A stretch of 30,741 bases of DNA, taken from positions 1-30,741 of IMG/VR virus record IMGVR_UViG_3300032216_001053. One strand, 5' to 3'. The translations under genes and the position numbers were made by a program. How positions within the stretch are numbered: the stretch's first letter is position 1; every line of letters begins with the position of its first letter. The notes under the pieces are model-generated. The model saw nothing but the letters and a program-made list of their open reading frames with translations, ran no database searches and was not told where the DNA came from. Shown here one piece after another: positions 5,825 through 22,528 of this stretch. Source of the stretch: a virus (lineage: Duplodnaviria > Caudoviricetes).

Positions 5825-7336
5825 TCAGTAATAACCCGCATGCCGCTTAGATTTAAATTCTCTTATTTCATCTTTTTCATCCGTGTTTAAACGAATAAAC
5901 CCGCCCTGACGAAATCTTAAAAGGGCTTGGCTAGTCGAATCCACTAAGTCGTCATGGTCGCCATTGGGGAAGGAAGCACATTCCTCCATTACCTCATCAG
6001 CCCATCTACGGTTAGGACACCAAACCATTCCCGAAGCAAACAAATCCGAAATAGCGTTTACACGGGCTATCTTATCACTTCCTTTGCCTGGCGTATACTC
6101 TGATAATGGTATACCCATCCTACGCATCTCATAGATGAGGGGCGCTCCTGCCGCCTTTTTTTCTACAATCAGGGTGTCGGGGTTAAATTCTTTGTACTTG
6201 TTAAACGCTTTTGCTTTTAATTCTGGGAACTCCATACGTTCTTTGACCGCATCCAATAGGATAATGTTGGCGGTTTCCTCGCCATTTTCGTTGGGTTTGT
6301 AAAAAATTCCCCATGTAGTACAGGCGGAATAGTCCGCACGGTTATTTTTTTCAAAAGCGGTATCCCATGATTGAATAATGTATTCGCAGTAGGGAGGATC
6401 GTCCTCTTCCCAGATTCTCCACATTTCCCGTTTAATGATTGCGCCCTCTTCTGAGGTTGGATTTTGTTGATACTGGGCTTCCCACTTGCCTACAGGTAAT
6501 TCAGCCTTGATCGCTTCCAATTCTTTCTGTGACCAGAATTCGGGCCAAAGTGGTTTGCCAGAGGCAAGTAGGGCTGGAAACTCAATTAACTCCCATTGAT
6601 CGCCCTCCCGCTGGGCAGCATTCTGTAGAATCTGACCTGTCAAATCTTTTTTTGACCAGCGGGTCATTACAATAATGATGGCTCCACCTGGTTGCAGACG
6701 CTGACGAGGACCAGAGTTGTACCATTCAAAGACCTTGTCATAGACGTTAGCCGTGCCTTGCATGGCTTCTTGTTCTGAGTGGGGATCGTCAATAATCAGC
6801 ACGTCCGCACCTTTACCTGTTACCGCACCTCCTACACCAATCGCAAAATAATCACCGCCCTTGTTGGTGTTCCAGCGCCCCGCTGCTTTGGAGTCTGAGG
6901 ACAGCTTAGTAGGGAAAACCCTTTGGTACTCAGAGGTGGCTACAAGGTTACGTACCTTACGACCAAAGCCCACCGCTAGTTCTGCTGTATGAGCCGTTTG
7001 AATAATTTTACGCTCAGGAAACCTACCAAGATACCATGCAGGAAACAGATAGCTGGCGAATTCAGACTTGGTATGGCGAGGAGGCATATTAATAATAAGA
7101 CGCTTAAGACTGCCATTAGCTACCCTTTCAAAGGCATCAGCCATATCTTTGTGGTGTTTACCCGCAATAAATGCAGACCACATATTGTTAACAAAAGGAA
7201 TGAAATGAAAACGGCAACGCTCTTTCTTGTCTTCGTCAAGCAACATCTTAATCTTGGGAATCTGCGGGGAATCCGAAGGAAGATGGTCTAGCAGTTCTAA
7301 ATACTGCTTTATTTCATCTGGCGTTAATAGACTCAA
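5825..7336 (-). CDS. terL: Terminase large subunit
   Basis: INMPPRHTKS Walker A, LIIDDP Walker B, MTRW coupling motif, QSWDTA and HDDLVDS nuclease motifs. Confidence 0.96.
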   Translation of the reverse strand: MSLLTPDEIKQYLELLDHLPSDSPQIPKIKMLLDEDKKERCRFHFIPFVNNMWSAFIAGKHHKDMADAFERVANGSLKRLIINMPPRHTKSEFASYLFPAWYLGRFPERKIIQTAHTAELAVGFGRKVRNLVATSEYQRVFPTKLSSDSKAAGRWNTNKGGDYFAIGVGGAVTGKGADVLIIDDPHSEQEAMQGTANVYDKVFEWYNSGPRQRLQPGGAIIIVMTRWSKKDLTGQILQNAAQREGDQWELIEFPALLASGKPLWPEFWSQKELEAIKAELPVGKWEAQYQQNPTSEEGAIIKREMWRIWEEDDPPYCEYIIQSWDTAFEKNNRADYSACTTWGIFYKPNENGEETANIILLDAVKERMEFPELKAKAFNKYKEFNPDTLIVEKKAAGAPLIYEMRRMGIPLSEYTPGKGSDKIARVNAISDLFASGMVWCPNRRWADEVMEECASFPNGDHDDLVDSTSQALLRFRQGGFIRLNTDEKDEIREFKSKRHAGYY

Positions 7337-7563
7337 AGCTTAGTGATTTCTTTAATAGAGTTATCAATAGGCTTTAAAGACCGCACAGTGTATGGCTGGA
7401 TCTTTAGGAACCCTCTATGCTTTAGAGTATGTACTAACCTGTGGATATTGGATTTGCTCCGCAATTGCAGACCATTAGCAATATCCATATAACTAGGGGA
7501 AAACCCTTTGATTTTGATAAATTCTTCTATAAACCGTAATACCTGCATTTGACGTTCAGTCAT
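7333..7563 (-). CDS. LexA-like winged-helix DNA-binding protein (no peptidase domain)
   Basis: MTERQMQVLRFIEEFIKIKGFSPSYMDIANGLQLRSKSNIHRLVHTLKHRGFL matches the LexA N-terminal domain pattern. Confidence 0.85.
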   Translation of the reverse strand: MTERQMQVLRFIEEFIKIKGFSPSYMDIANGLQLRSKSNIHRLVHTLKHRGFLKIQPYTVRSLKPIDNSIKEITKL

Positions 7564-8251: not shown

Positions 8252-8908
8252 TCAGTGCTTCTTACCAGTTCCTAATGAGTTCGCATGCTTGCTACTGTTA
8301 AGTAGTGACAACGATGATTGCAACTCAGCCTTGAGACTGTCCACGTTGATCTCTTCTACCTTCTGCTCTACCTTATCCACAAACATGCCAACTGCTTTGC
8401 CCATTAGTTCTAATGCTCTCAGCTTGGCACTCACTGGAACGTCCTCTGCATCTGCATGCTTGAGTAGTTCTTTCATGACGTGTCTACGTGTCACTGCTTG
8501 GTCAGTAAGGATCATCTCTTTTTTAGCCTCAAAGAACGGCTCTAAAAGTAAAGTGATTCGACTATCTCTCATAAGCTTGTTCGCATTGCTAATCATCGTG
8601 TTACGTGATGATCCAGTAGGCTGATAAGACTTCTCATATGCTTGCAATGGTGTGTGACCTTCCATCACATACTGAGCGAATAGCATAGCCTTTGGGCTTA
8701 GTCTTTTATCTCTGCCTGATGCCTCTACGTTATCTTGATCCTTCACACCTCTTGGTAGTCCATTACGCTTTACCTTTATCTCTAATGCATCAATAGCTGA
8801 CCGCATCCCTTCGGGGTCTTGCCCCGCTTTTAATGTGCTATCACTGTTCGCATTTTCTGTGCTATCGCTCAATGCATGCTGATTAATTACTTGACTGGCT
8901 TGTTTCAT
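8252..8908 (-). CDS. terS: Terminase small subunit (probable)
   Basis: RLSPKAMLFAQYVMEG...AYEKSY HTH region and C-terminal KLRALELMGKAVGMF, both TerS-like; upstream of TerL. Confidence 0.75.
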   Translation of the reverse strand: MKQASQVINQHALSDSTENANSDSTLKAGQDPEGMRSAIDALEIKVKRNGLPRGVKDQDNVEASGRDKRLSPKAMLFAQYVMEGHTPLQAYEKSYQPTGSSRNTMISNANKLMRDSRITLLLEPFFEAKKEMILTDQAVTRRHVMKELLKHADAEDVPVSAKLRALELMGKAVGMFVDKVEQKVEEINVDSLKAELQSSLSLLNSSKHANSLGTGKKH

Positions 8909-8977: not shown

Positions 8978-9397
8978 TAAGGTTCGTGCATCGTTCACTG
9001 ATCGTTCTCAGTACTGTCAGTTGACTGCTCCCAGTGCATGCGAGTGTGACTTCCTATATCTAGTACCATCACATCCCCTTATCACTAGACCGCAAAGTGT
9101 TTAAACCGACTGTCGTGCTACGCACAGGCTCACCCGATGAGCCACCCGATTGCTACTATTTATTCAATGCACTGGGTTTATGTACATGCCTCTAAAACGC
9201 ATCAGATCGCTCTGTATTCAATTTGATGCTTGTATGGTACTAAGCCCTATGCTAGTACGAGATCTCTAGTAATCCAGTAACCATGCGGGTTAGCGGGCGG
9301 TCAAGGCTCATTGCCTGAGCCATTGCCAATACAAGTCTTATATAAGACGTAAGACTAATACCTGAGTAAGTTGTGTGGGATTAAACAACACTGATGC

Positions 9398-9426
9398 TTG
9401 CATCGTTTAAATCTGCATGCTAACAT
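9398..9426 (+). promoter_or_regulatory. Early sigma70 promoter
   Basis: TTGCAT-N17-TAACAT with extended -10 TG; the spacer contains GTTTAAAT. Confidence 0.7.
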
Positions 9427-9432
9427 CTAGCC

Positions 9433-9780
9433 TGTTGTTGCAGTAAAGCGGTGAGTAACCACCGACACGTCAGAGCCTAGTGCGTGGATAAAGTAAAGAG
9501 GTGATCGCTGATACCAGTCAGATCTAAAACGAGGGTAGTCAATATCAGGACTTAAAACTGTGCGTCAAAGGCTAGTAGGCTCTGCCCCCTGATGGGATCA
9601 GGCAACCGAACGAGATGCGAGACGTGGCAAGCAACGATCCTACTGTGACAAGGTAGGGGAGCGCAGTCAGGGAGCGATCCCTAGTTCTTTGAGATTTAAT
9701 CTCATTGGGCTTTAACTAGACACCCACCTATCCTATCGGGGTCTGACCTAAGTCCAAGAGGATGCAATCTCGCATCTTTT
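9433..9780 (+). ncRNA. Structured ncRNA or 5' leader, family unrecognised
   Basis: Gene-free stretch after the promoter with nested helices: 9449-53/9460-64, 9471-79/9576-84, 9508-13/9543-48, 9588-93/9597-602, 9613-22/9768-77, 9639-43/9653-57, 9669-82 (GCGA tetraloop), 9681-86/9714-19, 9690-9704. Confidence 0.6.
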
Positions 9781-9795
9781 ATGGAGGCTTAAACC

Positions 9796-9954
9796 ATGTC
9801 TATTCAATCACCAATAGCAATCGTTGAGATCTTTAATCGTCATTCTTACTACCCTACTGACGTAGAGGGTTTCCATGTAGTTCATTTTGAAGAGCAGTAT
9901 CAGCCTGATACCAAGGTTGGTGCTATTCCCGCAAACTTTTTCTTTTCACTGTAA
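9796..9954 (+). CDS. First early small protein (52 aa)
   Basis: GGAGG RBS; MSIQSPIAIVEIFNRHSYY...; not in the ORF track. Confidence 0.65.
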   Translation: MSIQSPIAIVEIFNRHSYYPTDVEGFHVVHFEEQYQPDTKVGAIPANFFFSL

Positions 9955-10424: not shown

Positions 10425-10498
10425 CAGTGCCCATCTCAATGCCTCCCTTGGGGGGCATGAGGATGCGCCTTGCATCTAACTTTTTTGGAGGTTCAATC

Positions 10499-10756
10499 AT
10501 GGCAAAAATTCCACATGGCATTTGGAAAAAAATTAATTTTCAAAAGGGCTTGGAACACGTTGAGTATTTCGGCATAGGCAACGACAGGGTTACCTATCAG
10601 ATTGAACGTGTGATTGGCAACCCGCTTTATAAGTGGGTTGCAAAGCACCCAACCAATTACACTGTTTTCTTTTTTGGAAAAACCTTGGATGAGGTCAAGC
10701 GCAAGCTTGATGGCATTCCAAAATTAACATCAAACTTAGGAGGGCTTTATGCCTAG
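10499..10756 (+). CDS. Hypothetical early protein
   Basis: GGAGG RBS before ATG 10499. Confidence 0.7.
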   Translation: MAKIPHGIWKKINFQKGLEHVEYFGIGNDRVTYQIERVIGNPLYKWVAKHPTNYTVFFFGKTLDEVKRKLDGIPKLTSNLGGLYA

Positions 10757-10853
10757 AAATTTTGTAGCTAAACATGCAAAGCGTTGCGGTGCGGGTAGCC
10801 ATACCCCCCGCAAATACAGTCGTAAAACTAAACATAAAGGAGTTGCACAATGA
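10749..10853 (+). CDS. Basic 34-aa peptide, ArfA-like
   Basis: MPRNFVAKHAKRCGAGSHTPRKYSRKTKHKGVAQ; GGAGG RBS; ATGA overlap with the next gene. Confidence 0.6.
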   Translation: MPRNFVAKHAKRCGAGSHTPRKYSRKTKHKGVAQ

Positions 10854-11413
10854 GTACTCGTGAAGAGTGGCTTAACTCAGCCGTAACCGAGTTGCGTTCC
10901 ATATTCGATGCGAACGGCTTTCCATTACCCGCACACATTCGTGTGACGTGCGGTTTCCCATCCAAACGGGCACGTAGCCTGTACAAATCCATCGGTGAGC
11001 ATTGGTCTTCCAGTGCATCGGACGATGCCACCCACGAGATCTTGATCTCGCCTGTAGTTGACGATCCTGTCGAGGTATTCGCAGTGCTATGCCACGAGTT
11101 GGCGCACTCTGCGACTGATGGCGATGGGCATCGTGGTCGCTTTCCCTTGTGCGTTAAAAAGCTTTGGCTTGAGGGCAAGCCGACTTCCACTGTTGCGGGT
11201 CAGAAATTCAAGGATGCCTTTAAGGATCTGATCGAATCATTGGGCGAGTATCCGCATGCTCGTTTAAATGTGGGTAGTACTCATAAAACGCAGTCGACAC
11301 GTATGCTCAAGGCATCGTGCCCACACTGCGGTTACACGATTCGCCTGTCTAGTAAATGGGCTGATCAAGGCTTACCTGATTGCCCGATTGATGGCACTCA
11401 GTTTTCACTTTAA
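10850..11413 (+). CDS. SprT-like Zn metalloprotease with C-terminal Zn ribbon
   Basis: HELAH...H zincin motif; CPHCG...CPID. Confidence 0.8.
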   Translation: MSTREEWLNSAVTELRSIFDANGFPLPAHIRVTCGFPSKRARSLYKSIGEHWSSSASDDATHEILISPVVDDPVEVFAVLCHELAHSATDGDGHRGRFPLCVKKLWLEGKPTSTVAGQKFKDAFKDLIESLGEYPHARLNVGSTHKTQSTRMLKASCPHCGYTIRLSSKWADQGLPDCPIDGTQFSL

Positions 11414-11431
11414 TTTCACAGGAGGCTTACC

Positions 11432-12913
11432 TTGAATATCGAAAAAACAATTTCACTTACACCTTTGGGTGTTCTCAATACTGTTCTCGCTGAGAACAAT
11501 GTCATCACCACCACCAACAAGACTGAGGCAGTCTCTGCGGTGATCGGCTTGATCAACAATGGCATCGTCAGTGTTGATCAGGTTCGTGCCAAGAAAGCCT
11601 CGCCTGTCGCATCTGTGGGCATTCCTGATGACGTGCGTAAGCAGATCATCGAGGCGCAAACTCAGGTGACCAATGCTCTCGCTCAGGTTGAGGCAATCCG
11701 TAAGGTTGCCGATGCAAATCTTGATCGTGCGCTCAGTCAATCGACACAGATCGATAAGCAGTTTAGCGATTTGGCTACACGTTTAAATGCTAAGGTCGAT
11801 GCGGTAGAAACACCTGATGCCAAGTTGATTGCCGACACTATTCGCACTGAGGTGTCCAAGCTATTTGATTCTTTTCGAGCCAGTTCCCCTAAAGAAGTCG
11901 TAGCCAAGGTTGCTCAGTCAATCCCTAAAGTTAAACGTAAGCCAGTGCGTGACGTGTTTGCGGGTCAGCAGTTGTCTTATGACTTCGAGGGTGAGCATGT
12001 CGACTTCAGCGGTCTTGAGGTTGAGGTATGGGACGATCCTAATGCGCCTGAGTTGGTTGCTGATTACGTTTTTAATCCACGTAATCTGCATCAGGCTTTA
12101 TGCGCTCTTGACGATTCACTACCCGATAACGTGTGGCTTGCGGGTGAGCGTTCCACTGGTAAAACTGAGTTCGTAAATCAGATTGCTAATCGCCTTGGTC
12201 GCAGATTGTTTCGTGTAAATTTTGACGAGGCAATGGAACGTGCTGAGTTTATCGGTGCTGACAAAATCAAAGCGAACGCTAAAGGTGTTAACGAGTGCGT
12301 GTTCGTTGAGGGTGTGATTGCCAAAGCAATTCAACATGCGGGTGCAATCATTTTGCTTGACGAGTTGGGCTTTGCTAGAGCGCAGTCTATTGCTACTCTG
12401 CATGCCCCTACCGAGCGCAGTCCGCATCGTTCAATTGTGATTGCTGATTCGGGCTTGCGTATTCCTGTTGCATCGCATGTTGCATTCTTTTGCGCTGATA
12501 ACTCGAACGGCTATGGTGATCAGTCAGGTAACTTTGCGGGTGTGCGTGATCAGAACACTGCATTCATTGATCGCTTTAGCTACACGCTTGAGTTCAATTA
12601 CTTGCCACAAGCTGAAGAGACTGCATTGATCAGCAAGCGCACAGGCTTGCCAGTTGATGCGACTGAGGTGCTAGTCAAGTTTGCTAATGTTGCACGTGAA
12701 AAAGCACGTGCGGGTATTCTTACTCAGCCACCAAGCTTGCGCTCGTTGTTTGCTTGGGCACGTGCTATCACCAAGGGTGTGCCTGTTGGTCTTGCGTTTA
12801 ATAGCGCAGTGGTCAATAAGTATCCCGCTGATTGCGAGGCTGAGTTGCGTGGCATTTATAGCGCAACGATTGACGTTAACAATTTGAAATCTTATTTATC
12901 TAAGGGGGTTTAA
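11432..12913 (+). CDS. MoxR/CobS/CbbQ-like AAA+ ATPase
   Basis: Walker A GERSTGKT, Walker B IILLDE, sensor ADN, AFIDRF; N-terminal coiled coil; TTG start after GGAGG. Confidence 0.9.
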   Translation: MNIEKTISLTPLGVLNTVLAENNVITTTNKTEAVSAVIGLINNGIVSVDQVRAKKASPVASVGIPDDVRKQIIEAQTQVTNALAQVEAIRKVADANLDRALSQSTQIDKQFSDLATRLNAKVDAVETPDAKLIADTIRTEVSKLFDSFRASSPKEVVAKVAQSIPKVKRKPVRDVFAGQQLSYDFEGEHVDFSGLEVEVWDDPNAPELVADYVFNPRNLHQALCALDDSLPDNVWLAGERSTGKTEFVNQIANRLGRRLFRVNFDEAMERAEFIGADKIKANAKGVNECVFVEGVIAKAIQHAGAIILLDELGFARAQSIATLHAPTERSPHRSIVIADSGLRIPVASHVAFFCADNSNGYGDQSGNFAGVRDQNTAFIDRFSYTLEFNYLPQAEETALISKRTGLPVDATEVLVKFANVAREKARAGILTQPPSLRSLFAWARAITKGVPVGLAFNSAVVNKYPADCEAELRGIYSATIDVNNLKSYLSKGV

Positions 12914-13911
12914 TGCTTGCTATTCATGCTAAACGTGGTGTCGAATCGACACTCGAACGTATCTTCAAAAACACTGGTCGTGCATTCGATAGGCTAGAGT
13001 TTTTGTGGAGCGGTACTACTGCGGGTATTTCATTTGAGCGCAATGGCAGTGCGTTACATGCCAAGGTAATCTTTCCCGCAATCAATGAAGTTGCTCAGGT
13101 ATCACGTGAGCGTTTCAATAATCTGATTGCTTATGCAGTGCATGAGTTGGGTCATGCATGGTTCACTGACAATCAGCCTTGGGACGTTGCAAGACGTGAG
13201 CATGGCGGGTTCGTTAGTAACTTGATCAATGGGCTTGAAGATCCTCGCATCGAGCGTAAAGTAATCGAATCAGGTTACGCTCCCAATAGCAAGGCTCTCT
13301 TCGAGGATTTGATTAACTCAGTACTTGGTAAGGATGGGTACGTTGATGCGCTTGATATTAAGAACGTGCCGTTCCTACTTGCCGTAGAGGGTAGACGTTT
13401 AAATGGCTATGCAATCAATGTGCCAAGCATCGTTAATGATGCGCCTTGGTCTGCTGATTTGCACTGGGCATTGGCACAGGCGCAGTCTGCACGTAACACT
13501 CAGCAGATCGTTGACGTTGCGCTTGAGTTGTATAAGCGTTTGCAACAAACCTCAGAGCCTGAGCCACCTCAGCCACCTGATGATGAAGAGCCACCAGTTG
13601 GCGGTCAGCCTTGTGATGATGGTGAGCCTACTGAGGGTGGTGATCAGCCCAGTGATGAAGAGGGCGAGGGCGAGGGAGAGGGTAATGGCGAGGGCAACAA
13701 GCCTAGCGATAAGCCTTCTGATAAGCCTTCTGATAAGCCTAATGACAAGCCTAACAAAGGTCGTGGCAAGTCTGACTTCGAGGGCGGTCGTGATGTTGAG
13801 CCTAGCGACTTTATCGAGCGTGAGATGAAAGACGAATCGTTTACTGTCGATAGTGGTAAGGCACGTCCATCAGTTGGTAAACCTAAGTATGCAATTTTTG
13901 AATGGAGTTAA
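12913..13911 (+). CDS. CobT N-terminal-like protein (HExxH) with acidic linker
   Basis: HELGHAWFT and NGLEDPRIER motifs, followed by an E/G/D/P-rich low-complexity tail. Confidence 0.8.
   Translation: MLAIHAKRGVESTLERIFKNTGRAFDRLEFLWSGTTAGISFERNGSALHAKVIFPAINEVAQVSRERFNNLIAYAVHELGHAWFTDNQPWDVARREHGGFVSNLINGLEDPRIERKVIESGYAPNSKALFEDLINSVLGKDGYVDALDIKNVPFLLAVEGRRLNGYAINVPSIVNDAPWSADLHWALAQAQSARNTQQIVDVALELYKRLQQTSEPEPPQPPDDEEPPVGGQPCDDGEPTEGGDQPSDEEGEGEGEGNGEGNKPSDKPSDKPSDKPNDKPNKGRGKSDFEGGRDVEPSDFIEREMKDESFTVDSGKARPSVGKPKYAIFEWS
13699..13757 (+). repeat. Coding 12-bp tandem repeat (KPSD/KPND)
   Basis: AAGCCT(TCT/AGC/AAT)GAY repeated about five times. Confidence 0.8.
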
Positions 13912-13912
13912 T

Positions 13913-14719
13913 ATGGCTTTCAATAAAGCACAATGCGAATCAAATTTTTCTTTTCACTTTGGCAGTCAGCCTAACGGCTTGGGTGCTACCCGCTCTAACA
14001 TCATGCGCCTGTTGCGTTCGGTTGACTTGATGGGTTGGTCAACGCATGAGGAATCAGGTCGCTTAGATCGCAAGGCTTTCACACGCTTTGCTACTGGCGG
14101 TACGAACGTCTTCAGCAAACGTCACCACATCGAGGCTCAGAAGTCTGCGGTCAGCGTACTGGTTGACTGCTCAGGTTCTATGAGTACTGATGGTCGTATA
14201 CAAACCGCTCAAGCGGTATGCATTCAGTTGGCTAAGTTGCTTGATAAGTCTAGCGTTGCATACAACGTGACAGGCTTTTGCGGTGGCAAGGGTAATGACT
14301 ATGCATGGACTAGCAATACGCTCAAGCATGACTTGGTAACACCAATTGAGCGCACTACGTTCATACCATTCAAGACGTGGAAAGATTCCTTAACCAAGGC
14401 ATCAGCCAAGCTTGGATCGATGCATGGTTGGGCGCATGCTAGTACCCCTGATTATTCATCTATCTCGTTGACACTGGAGGATCTAGCGAGACGTGAAGAG
14501 AATCGTAAGATACTGTTCTTATTGACTGATGCCGATGGCTATGACAAGGTTCACATGCAACATCTTCAAGGGGTTGCTGATAAGCTTGGTATTAAAATCA
14601 TAGCTATAGGTATTGGCTACACTAAGGTTGCTCAGTGCTTTGACAACGCACAGAACGTGCAAAATGTAGAGGGTCTTGCATCTGCATCGTTCAACAAGTT
14701 GCTCAAAGAGTTACGTTAA
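13913..14719 (+). CDS. VWA-domain protein (CobT C-terminal-like)
   Basis: SGRLD, MIDAS DCSGSMS, TPD, LLTDADG, IIAIGIG; GGAG RBS before ATG 13913. Confidence 0.88.
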   Translation: MAFNKAQCESNFSFHFGSQPNGLGATRSNIMRLLRSVDLMGWSTHEESGRLDRKAFTRFATGGTNVFSKRHHIEAQKSAVSVLVDCSGSMSTDGRIQTAQAVCIQLAKLLDKSSVAYNVTGFCGGKGNDYAWTSNTLKHDLVTPIERTTFIPFKTWKDSLTKASAKLGSMHGWAHASTPDYSSISLTLEDLARREENRKILFLLTDADGYDKVHMQHLQGVADKLGIKIIAIGIGYTKVAQCFDNAQNVQNVEGLASASFNKLLKELR

Positions 14720-18445: not shown

Positions 18446-18648
18446 TACTGCCCTCTTGGAGGAGGGCAGACCTAGCCTAAACTAGGTTGCCTTCACAATC
18501 TATGCCCACGTTGGTATCGATTGACCCGAAAGACTTTTCGTGCAAAGGGTTCTTTCTTCGCCACCCTTTTCTGATCTCTAATGCACTAACCCTAGTATCA
18601 GCAATAACTGTTTCACCCCTAGTGTTTTTCATCGCTGAATGAAACAGG
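18446..18648 (-). ncRNA. Structured leader or ncRNA upstream of HNH and primase-helicase
   Basis: Seven near-contiguous stems (+ coordinates): 18448-69, 18470-87, 18496-523, 18527-40, 18544-69, 18571-601, 18608-47; begins just after a promoter. Confidence 0.55.
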
Positions 18649-21836: not shown

Positions 21837-22230
21837 GGCGATAAAGGTTGCTCTTAAGCAAGACAAAACTGGATTTGTTTTAACTCTGAATATCCACCCT
21901 GATGAGATCCCCGATGAACTAATGCGGGATTTTGTTGGGGCTAGGTATGGAGTTGCGATGGTTCGGATTGAGGACAACGAAACTGCCAAGCACTATGACA
22001 ATCGGGTTAAGCAAGCGGGCATCTTAGGTAAAACTAGGGTGTTCCATATTTGGCTTAATAAAATACATGGATTAGATATTGATGGCGAAGATGATGCGGT
22101 TGAAGCTATCCGCACGATCTGTGACATTGGCTCTCGCACTGAGTTAAACGGAAACAAGGTAGCACAACAAAAATTTGACAAGATGTTAGCGGAGTACGAA
22201 AAGTGGAGCGAAGAAGATGAGCCGTTTTAA
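21817..22230 (+). CDS. Conserved phage hypothetical protein
   Basis: QFEAIKVALKQDKTG...IHPDE...SRTELN. Confidence 0.75.
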   Translation: MNALQFEAIKVALKQDKTGFVLTLNIHPDEIPDELMRDFVGARYGVAMVRIEDNETAKHYDNRVKQAGILGKTRVFHIWLNKIHGLDIDGEDDAVEAIRTICDIGSRTELNGNKVAQQKFDKMLAEYEKWSEEDEPF

Positions 22231-22528
22231 AACTGTTGTACCACTCATGGTTTATGTTGATCCATCGGAAAGAACCAAGATTCAAAACTATGCAAAAAAA
22301 GAAAAGACCAACGTCAGTCAATTGGCGAGGGAAGCTTTCCGAATGCGTATGTCTGGTGGTGACGACCCATTTAACCAAGGATTTAATCATGGTTTAAACG
22401 AGGCATTAAGAATTATCAACAGCACGGATGGAGCAAAGTTAGCATTTCCATCGGGAAAAACTGTAGCGAAGTTATTAACCGATGAAATTGAAAACTTTTT
22501 ACGTGAAACTAAGGATGCAAAATCGTGA
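22217..22528 (+). CDS. Putative ribbon-helix-helix DNA-binding protein
   Basis: PLMVYV...KIQNYAKKEKTNVSQLAREAF pattern. Confidence 0.6.
   Translation: MSRFKTVVPLMVYVDPSERTKIQNYAKKEKTNVSQLAREAFRMRMSGGDDPFNQGFNHGLNEALRIINSTDGAKLAFPSGKTVAKLLTDEIENFLRETKDAKS

Follow-up and report, generated by a model that had tools for sequence, protein, structure and literature searches.

A phage early-operon leader predicted to be a mosaic of small, exchangeable RNA modules

The early genes of phage T7 are preceded by RNase III sites, in which about one helical turn of duplex stands before the ribosome-binding site (RBS). The first host-polymerase transcript of T7 (A1–A3 promoters to gene 0.3; NC_001604) begins with a long untranslated leader. 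Several other RNAs invite comparison. The put RNA of HK022 has 70 nt, two abutting stems, and conserved G35, A9, and U28 (PMC9378689). The Nus-factor boxA has the consensus GYTCTTTAANA (bioRxiv 091223). Hammerhead ribozymes flanking prophage genes have been proposed to process long transcripts (PMC3088659), and twister sister and other ribozyme classes are found in such contexts (PMC6765202). The CptI and TenpI antitoxins and the pseudo-ToxI of phage TE are tandem H-type pseudoknots of 37–39 nt in variable copy number (PMC4627078, PMC13682666, PMC3475682), and type III antitoxin repeats measure about 31–62 nt. CptI has an A27–G35 loop, a kink at U30, and a G13 (PMC4627078).

The leader described here lies in a 30,741-nt stretch of DNA (hereafter, the window) from a Caudoviricetes virus (IMG/VR record IMGVR_UViG_3300032216_001053; 30.7 kb, 50% complete, 42% GC). 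The window encodes portal, terminase, GroES, and primase/helicase proteins, and its large terminase subunit (TerL) is nearest to those of HTVC027P/HTVC023P-type phages (49–59% identity). The habitat of the uncultured phage family that carries the leader is probably fresh water. Our guess for the host is a freshwater betaproteobacterium, the betaproteobacterial part being based on an Rfam hit and the 42% GC content. A Betaproteobacteria-1 RNA (18524–18646, minus strand; 68.8 bits, above the gathering score) precedes the HNH and primase/helicase genes. The leader sits between a leftward small terminase (TerS) gene (8252–8908) and a rightward operon, in which small variable ORFs are followed by genes for a HEXXH-motif protein, a MoxR-type ATPase, and VWA proteins. 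A conserved early cluster (10850–14719, plus strand) encodes the HEXXH-motif protein with C-terminal cysteines, the MoxR-type AAA ATPase, and two overlapping ORFs, one matching the N-terminal and the other the C-terminal part of a single PHROG (1576), which may represent a split or frameshifted VWA protein. The first early gene is hypervariable, with 41 different strings of the first 12 residues (many of them related) among the first ORFs of 50 leaders. No small ORFs were found within the leader, where stops break all three frames. In agreement with the first-pass annotation, a search found no tRNA or tmRNA. Two relatives have tRNA genes near the early region (L391:400–471 and L395:66–137, both minus strand), and the window has none. 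In blastn searches against GenBank phages, the leader region had no match, and module D (Table 1) gave just two weak coding hits.

Homologous leaders were gathered through TerS and early-gene neighbors and by motif scans. The 117 complete leader extractions, many from shared contigs, were reduced to 50 non-redundant leaders (<97% identity). No conclusion drawn here depends on the unpublished genome G065. Matches lacking the upstream ATCTCA (62 of 106 in the metagenome scan) or the inner stem (83 of 142 in the D locus search) were discarded. All 50 complete leaders are 235–565 nt long and none is short; in distant relatives the leaders are also long and structured, with a different composition. 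Rfam 15 gave no hit to the window region at E ≤ 1, none to the leaders of 18 module-sharing loci at E ≤ 2, and none at the gathering score in 20 more loci; a 19th module-sharing locus, L027, gave a hammerhead. The 50 homologues and the lack of an Rfam match thus bear out the first-pass annotation in its central claim, namely that a conserved, uncatalogued, structured non-coding leader heads the phage early operon. From covariation, this leader is predicted to comprise about nine small RNA modules, arranged in a row, that fold separately (Table 1).

Table 1. Predicted features of the leader and its flanks, in window coordinates.
Feature	Description	Position	Strand	Basis or occurrence
Early promoter	Predicted sigma-70-type; −35 TTGCAT 9398–9403, 17-nt spacer, extended −10 TG-n-TAACAT 9418–9426	9398..9426	+	Sequence
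A	5-bp hairpin, 6-nt A-N-N-N-A-C loop	9449..9464	+	27/50 leaders
B	37-nt H-type pseudoknot, A-rich loop 3; S1 9466–70/9482–86, S2 9476–78/9499–9501	9466..9502	+	Covariation
C	H-type pseudoknot; S1 9503–06/9521–24, S2 9513–15/9534–36	9503..9536	+	Generic pseudoknot descriptor; variants keep both stems by eye
C2	24-nt H-type pseudoknot; S1 9537–40/9549–52, S2 9546–48/9558–60	9537..9560	+	Generic pseudoknot descriptor
F	Long hairpin: basal stem, purine-rich internal loop, AGUA/GAA motif, variable top	9562..9618	+	35/50 leaders
E	Divergent in window; hairpin 9639–43/9653–57, UGAC-containing loop	9619..9665	+	Covariation
G	A-GCGA-U tetraloop hairpin, stem varying freely	9669..9682	+	Covariation
Heptamer	GYUCUUU	9684..9690	+	Equals positions 1–7 of the 11-base Nus-factor boxA consensus
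D	3′ pseudoknot; 5′ strand 9691–96 pairs with loop 9766–71 of terminal hairpin 9761–65/9772–76; inner stem 9705–12/9750–57	9691..9776	+	Inner stem, loop pairing, and terminal stem covary
I	Hairpin inserted in the stem of D, displays CACCUA (9725–30)	9718..9744	+	24/50 leaders, 1–3 copies
RBS and start codon	First early gene	9783..9798	+	Sequence
Second D copy	Lies 10 nt upstream of the RBS for the ORF at 10499	10426..10476	+	

Transcription from the predicted promoter would start near 9433. The first-pass annotation's good promoter stands in so far as it has sigma-70-like boxes and a TAnnAT-type hexamer at the equivalent place in 49 of the 50 leaders (the same hexamers served to delimit the leaders), but a simple promoter scanner made no call at 9398–9426. 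Near-palindromic RTGCTAGCAY-like sites at 9394–9403 and 9417–9426 overlap the −35 and −10 boxes, with others at 8835 and 9249. Such sites recur around the promoters of relatives at about 1.4 per promoter (a figure without a control) and are perhaps a candidate operator for a LexA-like (7333–7563) or Arc-like (22217–22528) protein.

Pseudoknot B, the GCGA hairpin G, and module D covary strongly. The shuffles behind the values given here (10000 and other numbers) ignore relatedness; paralogous copies inside one genome show the same compensatory differences. The copies of B, chosen by loop motifs alone, number 72 in 36 of the 50 leaders, and every one is fully paired in both 3-bp stem cores. Each leader has zero to four copies, with a single one in the window and in 18 of the 36 B-bearing leaders, and the repeats are spaced 38–39 nt apart in relatives. 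Eight versions of the pseudoknot stem form 24/24 pairs, compared with 11.9 after shuffling (0/10000). Among 40 distinct copies, 97 compensatory cells were counted overall (0/500 shuffles), S1 columns 1–4 and S2 columns 11–13 are paired in 100%, pair 6–16 never forms, and pair 10–37 fails in 17. The invariant bases are the loop end AAA-N-(A/U)A-N-N-G and a G in loop 1. B occurs once per genome, in the leader only, in G000 and G002, and is absent from three more distant complete genomes. C is probably related to B, and C2 shows one compensatory change per stem in only two versions, which alone is not significant. The 5′ hairpin A, with 15/15 pairs in three stem versions, is also not significant (1668/10000 shuffles). 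A generic descriptor found 97 A-rich pseudoknots in the 50 leaders, compared with 8–18 in ten shuffled sets, and none in 16 leaders. Three stand back to back in the window (9466–9560), a number that 0/200 shuffles reach, and 38 of the 41 short gaps between pseudoknots measure 0–3 nt. Where B meets C, near 9497, stands a 16S-complementary GAGGTGATC; it is variable among relatives and was set aside as chance.

B shares with the type III antitoxins an H-type pseudoknot of similar size and variable copy number, in which S1 is long, S2 is short, and the long A-rich loop lies along S1, contains AAA-kink-AA, and ends in G (PMC4627078, PMC13682666, PMC3475682); a tandem arrangement may be common to both, with B repeated in some relatives and single in the window. 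Unlike them, it has no toxin gene and no terminator, has extra loop bases, is mixed with unrelated modules, and is separated by 0–3-nt spacers without the single-stranded tails that the toxin cuts and binds. On sequence grounds, B appears to echo the CptI antitoxin loop but to fall outside the class. Searches with ToxN-type Pfam and PHROG families gave no hit among the early ORFs. Of 401 genomes in the order sampled, which may not be that of the host, one has ToxN, with a repeat unlike B by eye. One bacterial genome has a full ToxIN-type locus (L438:2050–2160, minus strand), in which a terminator accompanies about three short repeats. It is reported that cptIN was not found in Proteobacteria (PMC3401426). 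The four pattern matches to B in the genome collection stand outside arrays and were put down to chance, and the B model gave weak matches in 2 of 150 genomes, both in coding DNA, from a sampled group that may not be that of the host.

In the middle of the leader, the partners in the basal stem of F change together by eye, and a test of 2 bp above its AGUA/GAA motif, which we take to be of the loop-E type, was not significant, with too few versions. For E, 86/110 pairs form, compared with 48 after shuffling (0/10000, mis-registered rows counted in). G has 15 stem versions with 57/60 pairs, compared with 31.9 after shuffling (0/10000), and is missing from 14 of the 50 leaders; its GCGA (9674–77) is the GNRA loop seen in the first-pass annotation. 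GYUCUUU follows G in 29 of 36 leaders, occurs also in L412, L418, L402, and L414, and varies at its Y position, as boxA does. A complete boxA follows G in 0/36, and its last four bases are never all present. Compared with the Nus boxA, the arrangement here is thus a hairpin and then the first seven bases, incomplete in 36/36 and absent from about two in five leaders. The CACCUA displayed by I, which presumably resembles the 3′ end of 16S rRNA, appears in unrelated stems and is biased toward the sense strand (33 sense vs. 5 antisense; 57 vs. 7 in 28 more distant loci). It is the most widely shared element, with several copies in some leaders (L050, L066, L089, L367, L392, and others).

At the 3′ end of the leader, D is kept as a shape and not as a sequence. 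Its inner stem forms 87/90 pairs and beats all 10000 shuffles, and its terminal stem covaries in four related versions. The strand 8–3 nt before ATCTCA pairs with the terminal loop at 38/45, compared with 31.0 (1/10000 shuffles), and at 51/60, compared with 46.1 (54/10000); slid controls are lower (15–31). A search by structure only at 520 Shine–Dalgarno (SD) sites found 42 D-like elements, a set that includes one hammerhead false call and one mis-parsed row, and the distinct D-like loops are fully paired in 18 of 26, compared with 6.3 after shuffling (0/2000). The inner stem-loop spans 20–32 nt, or 51–53 nt where I is inserted; compared with the duplex of a T7-type RNase III site, the covarying pseudoknot is an additional feature. 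In the wider family the bases at the junction show no conservation, and many copies offer the 5′ strand two potential partners (local and terminal loop). All 61 copies end 5–12 nt upstream of the SD, and 14 further internal copies, duplicates among them, are listed in relatives.

D resembles the hammerheads flanking prophage genes as a repeated RNA element directly before early-gene RBSs, and differs from them in having neither a hammerhead core nor an Rfam hit. The window itself has no hammerhead core by inspection and no hammerhead hit in Rfam. Among 63 distinct relatives, 10 have a full-core hammerhead ahead of an SD. These hammerheads represent about three lineages, and the predicted cut (type I, complete core) falls 13–14 nt before the SD; controls in 80 loci gave 0 on the minus strand and 0 downstream. 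Compact canonical examples are L391:3265, L393:2562, L394:3269, L405:1331 and 578–633, and L035:344–395. Of the type I hammerheads, Rfam scored that of L035 (E 0.17) and missed the rest at E ≤ 3; it also scored a type III hammerhead at the leader end of L027 and L405 (E about 1e-3, below the gathering score). In L394, D stands at the leader end, and internal slots are filled by a hammerhead and a variant of D. An apparent mutual exclusion of D and hammerheads (0/20, Fisher p = 0.023) was rejected, given that 4 of the 10 hammerhead loci have a broader D at the leader end. Long irregular hairpins fill the pre-RBS slot in L028, L033, L036, L037, and L039 (by eye). Another repeated pre-RBS hairpin, with an internal loop, occurs in L033 and L036 (twice each), L393, L420, and L421, and the L033-type hairpin is a possible RNase III-type site. 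A likeness to the NAD-II/mini-NAD riboswitch was dropped, with no supporting literature found and no Rfam hit.

Across the 50 leaders, related phages exchange, duplicate, and lose these modules as units, and six marker modules occur in ten combinations of presence and absence. L002, with a TerS 90% identical to that of the window, lacks A–E and has only G, I, and D in common with it. L019 and L020 (TerS 52–53%) have C and C2 100% and F 97% identical to the window and lack I. The F–E–G–heptamer block is kept in relatives at about 40% TerS identity. In L007, L122, L261, L051, L235, L014, and L050, entirely other 5′ module sets are joined to the same D, and these sets are further undescribed folds, including another pseudoknot type (K, 6/50).

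This mosaic of separately covarying small modules contradicts the architecture first proposed, in which two large domains are closed by long-range helices and a 3′ terminator/antiterminator switch gives two conformations. Both helices exist in the window. Helix 1 (9471–79/9576–84) is in the minimum-free-energy fold, but it is intact (9/9) in 1 of the 27 leaders that carry both strands, the sole case being the window itself; its strands belong to two separate modules, and a pattern based on it had 0 matches in viral contigs. Helix 2 (9613–22/9768–77) reaches at least 9/10 pairs in 12 of 32 leaders without compensatory change, all 12 sharing an identical 5′ strand; 7 of the 32 rows are mis-registered, and 6 of these read AGATAA, which is unable to form it. 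Helix 2 may be an alternative pairing in one sub-clade. The GATGC/GCATC hairpin (9761–76) with its TTTT is present, and an RBS follows shortly, at 9783, as had been noted; the U-run is not conserved (at least five T in the 8 nt after the last hairpin in 11 of 49 leaders). The folding energy of the whole region (z = −1.03; 14/100 shuffles as good) is no better than chance. Because helix 1 is kept in 1/27, helix 2 lacks compensation, and the U-run is found in 11/49, the switch model is unsupported; both long helices also clash with covarying local modules, and we regard the model as barely credible. The proposed check for covariation among homologues thus failed for the long helices and succeeded for local modules, including pseudoknots that had been missed.

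By eye, the order of elements is similar to that of the T7 leader, where a hairpin and a small A-rich pseudoknot are followed by boxA, hairpins, and the RBS. The T7 leader differs in its three promoters and complete boxA, whereas the leaders described here have a single promoter, only part of boxA, as many as six pseudoknots, and exchange of blocks between relatives. The T7 leader does not match model R1 built here, and the generic descriptor finds only one pseudoknot in it, not above shuffles. The put RNA shares the early-promoter-proximal position, but it is a two-stem RNA of 70 nt compared with a variable array, and no module here has its layout by eye, judging from its description.

The readings of function are not all exclusive, separate modules may have separate jobs, and the three functions suggested in the first-pass annotation (antitermination RNA, protein sponge, and anti-defence RNA) remain live. 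Tentatively, at somewhat less than an even chance, we favor a cis-acting role, in which the leader would shield the early mRNA and punctuate it, in a layout resembling that at the start of the T7 early transcript. RNase E scans RNA, and a 5′-OH end is protective. Host RNA polymerase would start near 9433, and the stacked pseudoknots (0–3 nt apart) would fold during transcription and block nuclease scanning and Rho loading on the untranslated leader. The hairpin with GYUCUUU would serve for weak NusB/S10 loading or as a nuclease cut site, and D would give each downstream cistron a structured, insulated 5′ boundary, as a hammerhead does by cutting. This cis reading is favored because every relative has a long structured leader though the parts are replaceable, because the pseudoknots are stacked without linkers, and because D occupies the slot where relatives use hammerheads; long leaders of differing composition suggest one job with interchangeable solutions. 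However, the boxA match is 7/11 and missing after 7 of 36 G hairpins, 16 leaders have no pseudoknot by the generic descriptor, the T7 leader has one, no more than its shuffles, and the hammerheads come from about three lineages, with the compact type I mostly unscored by Rfam. Moreover, one roadblock would suffice, yet there are up to six pseudoknots and sequence-conserved loops (CACCUA, GCGA, and loop E), which point to specific binding partners. Conserved loop sequences and copy-number change are better explained by an RNA decoy or anti-defence cassette, in which the leader would be cut off near D and each module would bind a different host protein (defence nucleases, Rho, and ribosome factors are the proposed ligands) under arms-race exchange. 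This is a possible but unlikely reading, to which the mosaicism (L002 vs. L019/L020), the zero to four B copies, the hypervariable first genes, and the strand-biased CACCUA in one to three copies in unrelated stems lend weight. So do the invariant bases of B, which echo the A27–G35 loop, U30, and G13 of CptI (PMC4627078), and the precedent of pseudo-ToxI in phage TE (PMC3475682). Nevertheless, no conserved terminator for release is seen, the tandem pseudoknots lack the tails bound by type III toxins, and the sampled groups, which may be the wrong ones, offer ToxN in 1/401 genomes and no host copy of B, and cptIN is reported as not found in Proteobacteria (PMC3401426). As a joint claim, an RNA counterpart of an anti-defence island, in which shuffled decoys would be made first and freed at D (possibly a new ribozyme), and the CptI-like pseudoknot and anti-SD-like CACCUA loop would neutralize host proteins, is a shade less likely still.

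Alternatively, the main job of the leader may be antitermination, with a put-like or rrn/nut-like RNA altering host RNA polymerase for read-through of the 7-kb early operon. The position after an early promoter, the hairpin-then-GYUCUUU order with its varying Y, and the persistence of the F–E–G–heptamer block at about 40% TerS identity would fit, and the sampled bacterial family has GTTCTTTAACAA sites in pairs about 2.1 kb apart, which we infer to be the boxA of rRNA operons. We consider this improbable: the last four boxA bases are complete in 0/36, G is missing in 14/50, candidate hairpin-U terminators are few (14276 and 14847 inside coding DNA, and 16308 at the operon end), and put is a 70-nt two-stem RNA and not a variable array (PMC9378689). 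D itself may be a new type of self-cleaving ribozyme or a site dedicated to an RNase III-type enzyme, either of which would be compatible with both the cis-leader and the decoy readings. D shares its slot with hammerheads and with long irregular hairpins, is a compact three-helix pseudoknot, and has ribozyme classes as precedents in such contexts (PMC6765202), but, in contrast to ribozyme cores, its junction is not conserved in sequence, it has no ribozyme hit in Rfam, and the apparent exclusion between D and hammerheads does not hold, which leaves this idea slightly less probable than antitermination. A gene-32-like pseudoknot is the comparison for D as a translational operator or enhancer, through which one protein would co-control several early genes. 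The fixed 5–12 nt to the SD and the two possible partners of the 5′ strand agree with such a role, but the SD lies outside every covarying helix, no candidate protein was found, and the upstream modules are left unexplained, so that we rate it as very unlikely.

The literature search found no description of these motifs or of a leader of shuffled RNA modules. The motif terms are absent from the searched part of the supplement of Fremin et al. 2023 (PMC10690425), although the modules may be among the 10,000 candidates of that study. The locus holds a genuine and uncommon collection of new RNA folds at a site of a familiar kind. At least five uncatalogued covarying RNA folds (B, D, E, G, and the CACCUA hairpin) stand in one short locus and are recombined as units. 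Recombination by units is well known for phage protein genes. Natural swaps define the module borders, and therefore each module can be tested alone. As a possible substitute for the hammerhead upstream of phage genes, D is a concrete candidate. The layout also offers a way to approach the leaders of T7-like early transcripts, which lack an explanation. Should the modules prove to be decoys, they would represent a new class of RNA counter-defence.
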